This document shows positions 11,198-14,934 of a stretch of DNA of 44,902 nt, in pieces. The stretch is from an uncultured Candidatus Saccharibacteria bacterium. GTDB taxonomy: Bacteria > Patescibacteriota > Minisyncoccia > Phycocordibacterales > Zambryskibacteraceae. The stretch covers positions 1 to 44,902 of the forward strand of contig CAZYVS010000005.1 in NCBI GenBank assembly GCA_964651655.1, given 5' to 3'. Under the pieces are notes generated by a model, which did not search any database, had not been told where the DNA came from, and saw only the letters and a list, made by a program, of their open reading frames with translations. Each line of letters begins with the position of its first letter. Position 1 is the first letter of the stretch. The position numbers were made by a program, and so were the translations under genes.

Positions 11198-13057
11198 ATG
11201 GAAATTCGTAATATAGCTATTATCGCGCACGTTGACCACGGCAAGACTACTCTGACCGACGCCTTGATGCGCCAGACCGGAACGGCGGCCGTAGGAGTCT
11301 CAATGGATTCAAACGTCCTTGAATTGGAGCGTGGCATCACTATTTATGCCAAAAATACATCCATTTTTTATAAGGGAACCAAAATCAATATTGTAGATAC
11401 ACCCGGACATTCAGATTTCGGTTCTGAAGTGGAAAGGGTTTTGCGTTCTATAGACACGGTGCTTCTCGTCGTCGATGCTCAAGAAGGACCGATGCCGCAA
11501 ACTCGTTTCGTTTTAAAGAAATCCCTGGAGCTCGGTTTGAAACCTATTGTAGTCATAAACAAAATTGACAAACCAGCCGCTCGACCAGAGGAAGTACATG
11601 AATCCGTACTGGAACTTTTTTTAGAACTAGGCGCTAACAACGAACAAATAGATTTCCCTACCGTCTACGCCATTGGACGAGAAGGCATTGCTAAGAAAAA
11701 TCTCACGGATAAATCCAAGGATTTAACTCCTTTGCTTGATGTTATTCTTGAACATGTCTCACCGGCGAATAGTCTCACGGAAAAAGGTCAGACCTTAGGT
11801 ACAAATTCTAAAGGTCTGACCTTGAGGAGCGAGAGCTTGAGGGCCCAGCCTTTTAATCTGGCTTATGACAATTTTCTCGGACGGCTGGCCATCGCGCGAA
11901 TTTATGAGGGCGCGCTGAAAGACGGACAAAAAGTTTTTGTCAAGAAACCAAACGGAGAAACTTACACCGGAAAAATAAACAAACTCTATACTTTTGAAGG
12001 ACTCAAAAGGAAAGAGGTGGACGAGGTCGTCGCTGGGGATATTTGCATGCTTGCGGGACTATCACAAATTTATATCGGTGACACAATAACAGCAAGCGAA
12101 GATGCTTCGGCTCTGCCGGCGATATCAGTTGATGAGCCGACTATTTCTCTTAATCTCGTCGTCAATGACTCCCCTTTTGCCGGGCGCGCCGGTAAATTTG
12201 TCACCAATCGGCAAATTCGCGAGCGATTAGAGCGGGAATTGGAAGTAAATGTCGGACTTAAAATAGATTTCTCATCCGGTGAATTCATAACTGTTTATGG
12301 CCGAGGAGAATTACATCTCGCTATTCTCTTGGAAAATATGCGGCGCGAAGGATTTGAACTTCAAGTGTCTCAACCGCACGTCATTATCCGTAAGGGTAAT
12401 GATGGTGAGCTTGTCGAACCATTCGAGGAAGTAATAGTGGATGTGCCTGAACAAATGTCTGGCACTGTAATCTCAAAATTAACAGAACGCCGAGCCATTC
12501 TTCTTGATATGAGAACCGATCCCTCGACTCCGCTCGGGATAAATAATCAAACTCGCCTTACTTTGGAAGTGCCGACCCGCGGACTCTTGGGCTATCGCAA
12601 TCAATTTGTCATAGACACCAAGGGCTTAGGTATTCTCTCTTCTCGATTCACCGCGTTCAAACCCTACACCGGTGAAATGAAACATGAAAAGAGTGGTTCG
12701 ATGATCTCTATGGAGAATGGCAAGGCTCTGGCCTTCTCGCTCAACAATCTACAAGACAGGGGTGTCTTATACATAGAGCCGGCAGATGAGGTGTATGAGG
12801 GGCAAGTGATTGGTAATACTTCAAGGGGTGAAGATCTCTACGTTAATCCGACCAAAGGCAAACAACTGACCAATATGCGAGCCTCCGGTTCGGACGAAAG
12901 CATTTTCCTGACACCGGCTTATAAACTTGATATTGAGCGAGCCATGGAAATTATGAAAGATGATGAATATATAGAAATTACCCCCACGGCTGTTCGTCTG
13001 CGAAAAATCCATCTAACCCAGACTGAACGTTCAAAAGCCCAGAGAAAGAACAGCTAA
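11198..13057 (+). CDS. typA: Translational GTPase TypA/BipA
   Basis: AHVDHGKTT, ERGITI, DTPGH, NKID, GRGELHL, EPFEE, YEGQVIG, EITP motifs. Confidence 0.97.
   Translation: MEIRNIAIIAHVDHGKTTLTDALMRQTGTAAVGVSMDSNVLELERGITIYAKNTSIFYKGTKINIVDTPGHSDFGSEVERVLRSIDTVLLVVDAQEGPMPQTRFVLKKSLELGLKPIVVINKIDKPAARPEEVHESVLELFLELGANNEQIDFPTVYAIGREGIAKKNLTDKSKDLTPLLDVILEHVSPANSLTEKGQTLGTNSKGLTLRSESLRAQPFNLAYDNFLGRLAIARIYEGALKDGQKVFVKKPNGETYTGKINKLYTFEGLKRKEVDEVVAGDICMLAGLSQIYIGDTITASEDASALPAISVDEPTISLNLVVNDSPFAGRAGKFVTNRQIRERLERELEVNVGLKIDFSSGEFITVYGRGELHLAILLENMRREGFELQVSQPHVIIRKGNDGELVEPFEEVIVDVPEQMSGTVISKLTERRAILLDMRTDPSTPLGINNQTRLTLEVPTRGLLGYRNQFVIDTKGLGILSSRFTAFKPYTGEMKHEKSGSMISMENGKALAFSLNNLQDRGVLYIEPADEVYEGQVIGNTSRGEDLYVNPTKGKQLTNMRASGSDESIFLTPAYKLDIERAMEIMKDDEYIEITPTAVRLRKIHLTQTERSKAQRKNS
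11784..11823. repeat. In-frame double palindrome (family B) in typA
   Basis: aaggtcagacctt ... aaggtctgacctt, perfect 13-bp inverted repeat with self-palindromic arms. Confidence 0.8.
12519..12540. repeat. In-frame palindromic element (family A) in typA
   Basis: atccctcgactccgctcgggat, reverse-strand variant of the tspO copy, encodes PSTPLG. Confidence 0.7.
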
Positions 13058-13203
13058 CCTCTAGATTCTCTCATACGTCAATAACTCACGGTCGTGAACT
13101 TATAACGTATAGAAAAAAATAAGTAGAGTTATTCATCAGGTTGCAATTATTTAAAAATAGTGTACAACATAGCCAGGATCGTGGAATAAAAAAGGAGGAG
13201 CCA

Positions 13204-13464
13204 ATGGAAAAATCAGAGATCCAGACAAGTGTTACAGCCGTAGTTGCCGAGGTTCTTGGTGAGTCTCAAGGGGATATCGGCTTGGATTGTGATCTGGGCG
13301 ATGATCTGGGTGTAGATTCTCTCGACCTTGTCGAGATAATCATGGGACTGGAAGAAAGGTACTCTATTGTTCTCCACAATCTCGACTGGGCTTCCACGGG
13401 TAAAGTTACGGCAAGAAAAATATCGGAGGATATCTGCCGATTCATAAGGGTGCCGGTAGTGTAA
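13204..13464 (+). CDS. acpP: Acyl carrier protein
   Basis: DLGVDSLDLVEIIMGLEE phosphopantetheine site, acidic 86 aa; AGGAGG RBS upstream of ATG 13204. Confidence 0.85.
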   Translation: MEKSEIQTSVTAVVAEVLGESQGDIGLDCDLGDDLGVDSLDLVEIIMGLEERYSIVLHNLDWASTGKVTARKISEDICRFIRVPVV

Positions 13465-13502
13465 GTGGCAATCTGAAGAATGCGTGTTGGTGAGGTTGAT
13501 TG

Positions 13503-13540
13503 AGGTTCGGAGGACGCACGTTCTCCGAACCTTTTTTATT
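13503..13540 (+). terminator. Intrinsic terminator of the ACP gene
   Basis: aggttcggag/ctccgaacct stem followed by a T-tract. Confidence 0.8.
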
Positions 13541-13603
13541 TGTCTTATAAGTATTACAAGCTAAAAGCTAGAAGCAAACATCTAGAAACTGTATAATAGC
13601 GAC

Positions 13604-14371
13604 ATGGCAAAACTTGGAACCGATCCGTACAAAGGAGTTAGAGATTTCTACCCTGAAGATATGGTCATCCAGAATTATATTTTCAACGTCTGGCGTAAAA
13701 CTGCCGAAAAATTTGGATATGTTGAATACGGCGCTTCGTTACTGGAACCAACTGAAATTTATACCGAAAAATCGGGCGCGGAGATAATTAACGAACAAAC
13801 TTTTACCTTCATGGATCGGGGCGATCGATCTGTCACCCTACGTCCGGAGATAACTCCATCGCTCGCTCGCATGGTCGCCGCGCGCCGTAGAAATTTAAAA
13901 TTCCCCTTACGCTGGTACTCAATTCCAAATTTATTCCGCTACGAACGACCGCAACGCGGAAGAAAACGCGAACATTGGCAATTAAACTGCGACCTTTTGG
14001 GTATCGCCGGTATTGAAGCGGAAAAAGAAATTATTTCTCTGATCTACACAATCATGAAGGAATTTGGAGCAAAAGATGAAGATTTTGAAATAAGAATTAA
14101 TAATTCAGACATCAATAACTTTAAAGAAATTGGGTCAAACTTGGTTTTTGACCCAGAATTGGCCAGAGGACAAACCTATTACACCGGAATAGTTTTTGAA
14201 ATCTTTGATACAAATAAAGCAAACGGGCGGGCGCTGGCCGGTGGTGGAAGATATGATAATCTTCTGGAAATGTTTGAGGCCGAACCAATCCCCGCGGTTG
14301 GCTTCGGTATGGGAGATATTACTATTCGTGACTTTCTGGAAACACATGGACTGCCATTATGCGCAAAGTAG
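13604..14371 (+). CDS. hisS: Histidyl-tRNA synthetase, catalytic core only (255 aa)
   Basis: KGVRDF, LRPEITP, FRYERPQRGRKREHWQ (motif 2), LARGQTYYTG, GGGRYD, AVGFGMG (motif 3); no C-terminal anticodon-binding domain. Confidence 0.85.
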   Translation: MAKLGTDPYKGVRDFYPEDMVIQNYIFNVWRKTAEKFGYVEYGASLLEPTEIYTEKSGAEIINEQTFTFMDRGDRSVTLRPEITPSLARMVAARRRNLKFPLRWYSIPNLFRYERPQRGRKREHWQLNCDLLGIAGIEAEKEIISLIYTIMKEFGAKDEDFEIRINNSDINNFKEIGSNLVFDPELARGQTYYTGIVFEIFDTNKANGRALAGGGRYDNLLEMFEAEPIPAVGFGMGDITIRDFLETHGLPLCAK

Positions 14372-14934
14372 TCTTGGATATAGAAACAAAAAATTTTTTT
14401 CAAGATGTCGGCAAGAACGATCCGGCCCTTTTGGACATTGCTTTAGTGGCCATACACGATTCTCTAACTGACTCATATTCCTCGTTCATAGAAGAAGAGT
14501 TGCCAAAACTTTGGCCAATATTGGAGCGAGCTGATATGCTCATCGGTTTTAATTCCGATCATTTTGACATTCCGCTTCTTAATAAATATTACCCGGGCGA
14601 TTTAACAAAGATAAGAAGCCTGGATATTTTAAGGGAGATAAAAAATTCTTACGGGCGCCGAATGCGTCTCGACCAATTGGCGGACGGCACCTTGGGCAAA
14701 AATAAAACCGGCCGCGGCGACGATGCTATTAACTGGTGGAAGGCGGGCGATATAGAACAAGTGCGCGCTTATTGTTTGAATGACGTCAAACTCACCAAAG
14801 AACTCTATGACTACGCTCTCGCCAATAATTTACTAATATTTAAAGAAGGTAATGCGCTCAACAAAATTAAGTTAAATACTTCAGAATGGGAAAAATCAAA
14901 CAACCACAAACTTACCTTCTCTTTACCATTTTAA
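14359..14934 (+). CDS. RNase H-like DEDD 3'-5' exonuclease (YprB-like)
   Basis: VLDIET, GFNSDHFD, YCLNDV motifs. Confidence 0.85.
   Translation: MRKVVLDIETKNFFQDVGKNDPALLDIALVAIHDSLTDSYSSFIEEELPKLWPILERADMLIGFNSDHFDIPLLNKYYPGDLTKIRSLDILREIKNSYGRRMRLDQLADGTLGKNKTGRGDDAINWWKAGDIEQVRAYCLNDVKLTKELYDYALANNLLIFKEGNALNKIKLNTSEWEKSNNHKLTFSLPF

Follow-up and report, generated by a model that had tools for sequence, protein, structure and literature searches.

A histidyl-tRNA synthetase (HisRS) reduced to its catalytic core is known from laboratory constructs. As summarised in PMC4357726, the catalytic domain of Escherichia coli HisRS alone (Ncat) still charges tRNA-His at ~0.6% of wild-type efficiency; point mutants of the HisRS anticodon contacts cost only 5-9-fold (PMC4357726), and HisRS urzymes activate histidine without an insertion domain (PMC3060492). 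In the Thermus thermophilus enzyme, the insertion-domain residues that clamp C72-A76 of the tRNA are individually dispensable, and the DRG tripeptide of the partner subunit contacts G-1 (PMC4357726). Here we analyse an open reading frame (ORF) on contig CAZYVS010000005.1 (the window, 44,902 nucleotides in full; contig C5 of the genome labelled G000), which encodes a HisRS of only 255 residues (aa), hereafter mini-HisRS, with neither an insertion domain nor an anticodon-binding domain (ABD). Taking the sequence evidence together, mini-HisRS is probably, with a likelihood that we would put near 0.8, the only catalytically competent HisRS of this Ca. Zambryskibacteria bacterium (Parcubacteria, candidate phyla radiation, CPR). 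A full-text literature search returned no description of a natural HisRS lacking the ABD or the insertion domain, nor of a dead CPR HisRS such as the one that we find in the same genome.

The ORF was first remarked upon in an earlier note made from the DNA letters alone, and its particulars hold: the 255-aa frame, the class II motifs, the RGQTYYTG loop and the abrupt passage from RINN to LVFDPELARG are all as stated there (Table 1). The Pfam family tRNA-synt_His (PF13393) matches the protein at 2.3e-39, split over two stretches, and among NCBIfam models it scores 245.6 bits with TIGR00442 (hisS) as against 166.3 bits with TIGR00443 (HisZ), with positions 165-239 and 317-406 of TIGR00442 unmatched. 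The closest solved structures are HisRSs of the archaeal/eukaryal type, from Trypanosoma brucei, Trypanosoma cruzi and Thermoplasma acidophilum (E 2e-63 to 3e-60). In the alignment to solved HisRS, query residues 4-170 correspond to target residues 27-192 and query 176-246 to target 280-350; the stretch from query 170 to 176 thus stands against target residues ~192-280, so that some 88 residues, the insertion domain, have been replaced by a 12-residue link, SDINNFKEIGSN, which joins RINN to LVFDPELARG. At the other end, the chain stops 10 residues after the motif-3 segment AVGFGMGDITIRDFL, with nothing past the motif-3 helix; the targets start their linker and ABD at this point, and the ABD of ~100-130 aa is gone. 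A PF03129 (HGTP_anticodon) search of the protein gave no match. The class II fold and the HisRS-specific motifs HisA (RGxxYY) and HisB (GGGRYD) are present, then, and the insertion domain between motif 2 and HisA and the C-terminal ABD, which also mark a HisRS, are not. Identity in the core is 50-70% to orthologues from sister genera and ~35-45% to the solved structures, and an AF2 model (pLDDT 72, pTM 0.75) is matched by the catalytic domains of trypanosomal and Thermoplasma HisRS at TMq ~0.73. The earlier note called the protein urzyme-like, which overstates the case: a full seven-strand class II catalytic domain with HisA and HisB is encoded, 255 aa long as against 120-145 aa for a urzyme, which consists of motifs 1-2, with or without motif 3, and lacks the remainder of the domain (PMC3060492).

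Residues were mapped by alignment to T. thermophilus HisRS (1adj/4rdx), with their roles taken from PMC4357726. The positions that align with binders of His-AMP, G-1 and C72-A76 in that enzyme are D71-R72-G73, the LRPE loop, E114/R115/Q117/R120/R122, R188, Y192/Y193 and GGGRYD. In motif 2, the acceptor-end contacts whose T. thermophilus counterparts hold C72-A76 are present as E114, R115, Q117, R118, R120 and R122. These mapped catalytic and acceptor-end residues are invariant among 29 close homologues, and of the 75 orthologues that we examined, practically all have an intact motif 2 and an intact DRG...LRPE segment. The HisA motif, on the other hand, has changed with the architecture: it reads RGQ[AT]YY in 37/37 forms with a short insertion (<=12 aa) and in 0/29 forms with a long one, in which it is RGFDYY. 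Judged from this pattern, the remodelling of HisA looks like the repair of a surface bared by the deletion, that is, adaptation rather than decay.

A protein 40% shorter than any characterised HisRS, from a metagenome-assembled genome of 20 contigs, could be suspected of being an artefact or a decaying pseudogene, be it by a truncated call, a frameshift or an assembly error. We consider the chance of this negligible. Identical architecture is found in 23 genomes including G000, and the mini form recurs in over 100 clusters of metagenomic proteins, 253-258 aa long; dN/dS against the nearest relatives is 0.04-0.05, intermediates of the domain loss exist, and the downstream frame encodes a different conserved protein. 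The earlier note was right in seeing no frameshift, and also in its remark that the next gene overlaps the hisS stop, which it does by 13 nt; that gene encodes an exonuclease and not an ABD. We accordingly rejected the idea that the ABD lies downstream, in a different frame or in a gene of its own, the downstream gene being this conserved exonuclease and no orphan PF03129 domain being found in the genome. The mini gene is adapted and essential-looking, not a relic.

The genome (592 kb, metagenome-assembled, 94% complete) was searched in full with the hisS model, and five ORFs were returned: the mini gene, a 385-aa HisRS-like copy on contig C1, and the threonyl-, glycyl- and prolyl-tRNA synthetases (ThrRS, GlyRS and ProRS). 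The HGTP_anticodon domains of the genome number four, those of ThrRS, GlyRS, ProRS and the 385-aa copy. No third type of HisRS beside the mini form was found in ~100 related genomes. ThrRS, ProRS and GlyRS are themselves pared down with their ABDs kept (C1:72750-73900, C8:22661-23650 and C1:80559-81800, respectively): the ThrRS, 410 aa, matches model positions 167-564 only and is without the N-terminal editing or TGS part, the ProRS, 415 aa, is without the INS editing domain, and the GlyRS is 389 aa long.

The tRNA-His(GUG) gene of G000 carries an encoded G-1 opposite C73, in keeping with the basis of identity that the earlier note had named. The DNA search recovered tRNA-His, whose sequence is variable, in 18/86 genomes (19 with a DNA match), and on that subset the encoded G-1:C73 is present in 17/17 family genomes whose HisRS is of the same type as that of G000. 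The tRNA-His genes (L123, L124-L141) have no encoded CCA, and in G000 it is CCGA that follows C73. At least three acceptor-stem types occur in the family, GTGGCCG, GCGRCTA and GTGSCTA, with G-1, G1:C72 and C73 constant, and an ATAAT-like pentamer often lies immediately 5' of G-1. That mini-HisRS charges tRNA-His we infer from its standing as the sole live HisRS homologue together with this cognate G-1:C73 tRNA-His.

Could the protein have left translation altogether? Truncated synthetase paralogues with other jobs are known, among them EpmA/PoxA, GluQRS and the SerRS-like amino acid:carrier-protein ligases. A HisZ-like regulator, a carrier-protein ligase working with a neighbouring acyl carrier protein (ACP)-like gene, or a histidine sensor might each be imagined, all the more as HisZ also lacks the ABD and as PGAP labels many orthologues 'ATP phosphoribosyltransferase regulatory subunit'. 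We regard such a role as very improbable. In the 94%-complete genome, in which 14/14 controls were found, no match with E<=10 was obtained for HisG (PF01634), the partner that HisZ would need, and the hisS score exceeds that of HisZ (246 vs 166 bits, both below the cut-off, which for HisZ is 271.65 against the 166.3 obtained); HisZ is rejected on these grounds. The ACP-like ORF, with its DSL phosphopantetheine motif, does lie 140 nt upstream of hisS. It stands beside hisS only in G000, however, plus a fragment in one relative (G018), typA abutting hisS in most relatives checked; it is set apart from hisS by a strong intrinsic terminator, it scores under the NCBIfam ACP cut-offs, and a search of the genome for an ACPS-type phosphopantetheinyl transferase (PF01648) gave no match, so that the carrier-protein ligase, too, is rejected. 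Moreover, by position mini-HisRS is orthologous to the one live HisRS that sister genera have, and without charging by it, nothing in the genome could charge tRNA-His. The HisZ annotation of the mini-HisRS family is wrong, and the proposal of the earlier note, a natural minimal HisRS and not HisZ, is upheld by the lack of hisG, by the higher hisS score and by synteny with full-length HisRS.

The evidence that the second HisRS-like gene of the genome is dead comes from comparison with two relatives, G034 and G035, whose only HisRS is of the bacterial type and has all motifs. The 385-aa protein is likewise of the bacterial type, with S. aureus and T. thermophilus HisRS as its best PDB matches, and retains the helical insertion domain and a PF03129 ABD. 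Missing from it, and from its orthologues, are the N-terminal GxRD, the LRPE loop and the motif-3 Arg; motif 2 has gone from FRHDNPQRGRYREFxQ to KKHASRKKFGNYALH, HisA from RGLDYY to GEKNHA and HisB from GGGRYD to VGYRYS. As a real HisRS it is therefore rejected, since each motif that it is without is kept by the sole bacterial-type HisRS of those two relatives; it is catalytically ablated and unable to replace the mini enzyme. The earlier note had named two things that would tell against its proposal, a full-length hisS elsewhere in the genome or a hisG beside a gene grouping with HisZ. Formally this copy is the former, yet its active site is gone; hisG was not found. The gene is under purifying selection, dN/dS being ~0.04-0.08 with the ABD as its most conserved part. 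Its start overlaps the lepB stop by 4 nt, with pth upstream and a peroxiredoxin gene, rpsU and ybeY downstream. It is present in 39/41 related genomes, including genera with a full-length live HisRS, and occurs across the order; since it is found beside the full-length live enzyme, its loss of catalysis predates the truncation of that enzyme.

This pairing raises the possibility of a split enzyme, in which mini-HisRS would supply catalysis and the dead copy, by means of its insertion domain and anticodon reader, would bind the tRNA, both within one complex like that of SerRS2alpha/SLIMP. The proteins complement each other, in that the dead copy holds the modules that the mini enzyme has lost and has itself lost the active-site motifs, and the genome has no further ABD on offer. 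What would be expected of the paralogue in a split synthetase, an ablated active site with tRNA-binding modules retained, is found in the dead copy. Its predicted structure is confident (pLDDT 85, pTM 0.88) and shows a complete HisRS fold, with the HisRS-tRNA complex 4rdx as best structural match; the T. thermophilus residues that read the anticodon, E388, K397 and Q404, have as their aligned counterparts E352, R361 and Q368, which are invariant in 33 homologues; and its low dN/dS, its presence in 39/41 related genomes and the loss of its active site before the domain loss of the live enzyme, the order also inferred for SLIMP (PMC10570016), all fit.

Against this stands the equal conservation of the dead copy beside full-length, ABD-bearing HisRS across the order, which points to a role independent of the truncation. 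The mini and dead genes are never adjacent in the genomes checked, and the proteins are xenologues, ~25-30% identical in the core, rather than recent duplicates, so that heterodimerisation is no given. In addition, in the crystal structure of HisRS with tRNA, one and the same subunit provides most of the grip, through its active site and its ABD (PMC4357726); because HisRS binds its tRNA in cis, unlike SerRS, a tRNA bound by the ABD of the dead subunit in a canonical heterodimer would have its acceptor end directed to the dead site. We view the split enzyme as a tentative, minority explanation, and cooperation of any kind between the dead copy and the mini enzyme as doubtful to a similar degree. 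The fuller version of it, a two-gene xenologue enzyme in which a resident bacterial HisRS would read GUG and clamp the acceptor stem for an acquired archaeal-type core, in a non-canonical geometry convergent with SerRS2alpha/SLIMP, seems to us unlikely, if only a little more so.

We slightly favour a mini-HisRS that works alone. Made up of a complete class II catalytic domain and probably homodimeric, it would activate histidine and transfer it to tRNA-His, choosing the tRNA through contacts of its core, in which C72-A76 would be touched by the motif-2 loop and G-1 by the DRG tripeptide. Specificity would then come from the encoded G-1:C73 pair, which is found in no other tRNA. The uniqueness of this pair, the mildness of the anticodon-contact mutants and the residual activity of Ncat mean that, of the class IIa enzymes, HisRS could most readily do without its anticodon reader. 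Enzymatic activity, oligomeric state and the needlessness of a helper protein are what we infer from these features of the genes. The suggestion of the earlier note that only the acceptor stem is recognised is thus no more than a possibility, as the dead copy could supply anticodon reading in trans.

Several points weigh against the preferred reading, that of mini-HisRS as the sole and self-sufficient enzyme. The engineered E. coli HisRS without ABD is, as summarised in PMC4357726, ~170-fold impaired, and the insertion domain of the T. thermophilus enzyme forms one jaw of the acceptor-stem clamp (PMC4357726), so that a core with neither may be too weak or too unspecific alone. The genome, moreover, keeps a dead HisRS that holds exactly the two modules lost by mini-HisRS, which hints at a division of labour. 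The TIGR00442 score lies below the curated equivalog cut-off of 286.75 bits, a shortfall to be expected with two domains of the model missing. The AF2 model is only moderate and of low confidence at residues 1-16 and 44-82, and in a genome 94% complete, a further, unassembled HisRS gene is conceivable.

How the mini form arose can be read from its relatives, in which the earlier note had asked for the same deletions and in which they were found. Seventy-five orthologues were collected, and a tree was built from the core only, with the variable parts excluded. The full-length architecture has an insertion of 43-98 aa and an ABD. Forms with an 8-12-aa insertion and an ABD come from 15 genomes, of which the main clade holds 13; those with a ~10-aa insertion and no ABD come from 8, and those with neither from 23, including G000. 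None of the 75 combines an ABD with complete absence of the insertion. In the core tree the three short-insertion classes are one clade (SH-aLRT 98), within which the ABD-less forms are a clade (SH-aLRT 99) with the zero-insertion forms nested therein. The ABD is also missing from a further clade outside this one (SH-aLRT 95), whose members keep an insertion of 34-58 aa. By these data there have been a minimum of two ABD losses and about four reductions of the insertion domain. Sister genera carry a HisRS of 410-446 aa in the same slot, and in the tree the mini gene branches from among the full-length HisRSs; since the order typA-hisS-exonuclease-dsbA is common to the family, and partly to the order, the 255-aa gene is the positional orthologue of these longer genes. 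Synteny and tree alike thus place mini-HisRS with bona fide HisRS. The course of events would be that a full-length ancestor of the archaeal/eukaryal type underwent in-frame deletions, first of most of the insertion, then of the ABD and last of the final 10 insertion residues.

Among the 1.84 billion representative proteins searched, the nearest relatives of mini-HisRS are almost all 410-450 aa long, and from its distribution the fully minimal form seems largely confined to the family of G000. One library entry, P0338, is a GC-rich HisRS of 322 aa, apparently from outside the family, which is without the insertion domain and keeps the ABD, so that the insertion domain has also been lost on its own elsewhere. 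Within the family, hisS types do not follow genomes. The flanks of hisS in G017 (L037) are very near those in G000 (L013), with an exonuclease 90% identical, yet its hisS has a 34-aa insertion and RGFDYY and is of a type that clusters with other genera and another family (L038, from G011, was compared too). For this reason the sequences suggest exchange of hisS alleles by recombination within a conserved locus. The genus labels g1 and g29 are also intermixed in the hisS tree.

The remaining features of the locus are collected in Table 1. A typA/bipA-like gene is the conserved upstream neighbour, and the exonuclease gene immediately follows hisS in almost all genomes of the order that we checked, irrespective of HisRS architecture; the exonuclease has no NCBIfam match and no PDB sequence match. 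The 13-nt overlap couples it translationally to hisS. In the databases, the 400-aa protein P0028 looks like a fusion of HisRS and exonuclease, perhaps an artefactual one. In relatives, hisS starts ~16 nt after typA. In G000 the extended -10-like element TGTATAAT, which the default promoter scan did not flag, ends 6 nt before the hisS ATG, and no Shine-Dalgarno sequence is seen upstream of that ATG (13590-13603); for these two reasons the sequence suggests a leaderless or near-leaderless hisS transcript.

Table 1. Positions of mini-HisRS, its mapped elements and neighbouring genes in the window, and of two related genes elsewhere in the G000 genome.
Feature	Position	Strand	Remarks
typA/bipA-like GTPase gene	11198..13057	+	conserved upstream neighbour of hisS in relatives
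ACP-like ORF (DSLD phosphopantetheine motif)	13141-13464		probable start 13204; between typA and hisS
Intrinsic terminator	13502..13543	+	14-bp stem and T-run; ends the ACP-like gene
TGTATAAT, extended -10-like	13590..13597	+	
mini-HisRS coding sequence	13604..14371	+	ATG start, 255 aa plus stop; catalytic core only
D71-R72-G73 and T78-L-R-P-E82	13814..13849	+	counterparts of the T. thermophilus DRG tripeptide and of the LRPE loop; invariant in 29 close homologues
Motif 2, F111-RYERPQRGRKREHW-Q126	13934..13981	+	residue-for-residue match to T. thermophilus 111-126
Deletion scar, N166-NSDINNFKEIG-S178	14099..14137	+	joins the halves of the catalytic domain; 43-98-aa insertion domain here in relatives
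HisA, R188-GQTY-Y193	14165..14182	+	changed from RGFDYY
HisB, G213-GGRY-D218	14240..14257	+	from alignment and homologue conservation
Class II motif 3 segment, A231-VGFGMGDITIRDF-L245	14294..14338	+	10 residues before the protein end, where the ABD linker would start
RNase_H-fold 3'-5' exonuclease gene	14359..14934	+	191 aa; PF13482/PF10108; overlaps the hisS stop
tRNA-His(GUG) gene	C8:3780-3866 (L123)		G encoded at -1 opposite C73
Dead HisRS-like gene, bacterial type	C1:99196-100353 (L002:1219-2376)		385 aa; outside the window

In public records, the mini protein goes under HisZ, 'hypothetical' or HisRS, and the dead one under 'His/Gly/Thr/Pro-type tRNA ligase C-terminal domain-containing protein'. 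Inferences of the kind 'hisS missing' or 'hisZ present' would thus mislead as to the completeness or the metabolism of CPR genomes. Tryptophanyl-tRNA synthetase (TrpRS, ~330 aa) is usually cited as the smallest synthetase. If mini-HisRS charges tRNA-His in vivo, it would be smaller still and a natural counterpart of the catalytic-domain and urzyme constructs, and a class II core reading the acceptor end only (the 'operational RNA code') would be able to sustain translation in a living cell. A tiny groundwater bacterium would then offer a natural test of the least protein needed for correct tRNA charging, and the family around it a graded natural series, with insertions of 98, ~60, ~34, ~10 and 0 aa and the ABD present or absent. 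If, instead, the dead paralogue is needed, this would be the first bacterial case of catalysis and tRNA recognition split between a live and a dead synthetase. In either event, mini and dead HisRS are set out here together, in one genome and in evolutionary order.

Compared with the canonical archaeal/eukaryal HisRSs (T. acidophilum 1WU7; T. brucei/T. cruzi 3HRI/3HRK) and with its 410-446-aa orthologues, mini-HisRS has in common the catalytic domain and the His-AMP and acceptor-end residues, and with the orthologues of sister Parcubacteria also the neighbourhood and the G-1:C73 tRNA-His. It differs in lacking the 43-98-aa insertion and the ~130 aa of linker and ABD, in having RGQTYY in place of RGFDYY, and in its length, 255 as against 410-456 aa. 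Engineered Ncat (E. coli HisRS 1-320; Augustine and Francklyn 1997, cited after PMC4357726 and PMC3060492) is ABD-less in the same way; as there summarised, however, it is a laboratory construct of a bacterial-type enzyme with the insertion domain kept, whereas mini-HisRS is natural, under selection, orthologous to an essential gene and without either appendage. HisRS urzymes (119-145 aa, PMC3060492) are laboratory constructs that lack HisA, HisB and half of the core, all of which mini-HisRS keeps. HisZ is a HisRS paralogue that does not aminoacylate. The classical form is ABD-less, as is mini-HisRS, and the long HisZ of the Geobacteraceae (PMC2923632) keeps its ABD, as does the dead copy; HisZ, though, partners the short HisG, for which G000 has no match, and mini-HisRS has an intact active site and scores as hisS.

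For the dead copy, a likeness lies in the HisRS-like pseudoenzyme domain of Gcn2, which, as summarised in PMC11363354 (PDB 8t7t), is a dead HisRS fold used for tRNA binding or sensing; it ranks 49 among the fold matches of the dead copy. By the same summary it is a domain of a eukaryotic kinase, and its sequence kinship to the dead copy is at the level of the HisRS family only. For the pair as a whole, the nearest parallel is SerRS2alpha/SLIMP of animal mitochondria (PMC10570016), in which, as in G000, a live synthetase without a tRNA-binding domain is found with a dead paralogue that has one, and in which the active site was apparently ablated first, as in the dead HisRS copy. SerRS2alpha and SLIMP are, however, recent duplicates that form a proven heterodimer and bind tRNA across subunits, whereas the G000 pair are xenologues of two different HisRS types whose complex is hypothetical, in a family whose members bind tRNA mostly on one subunit.

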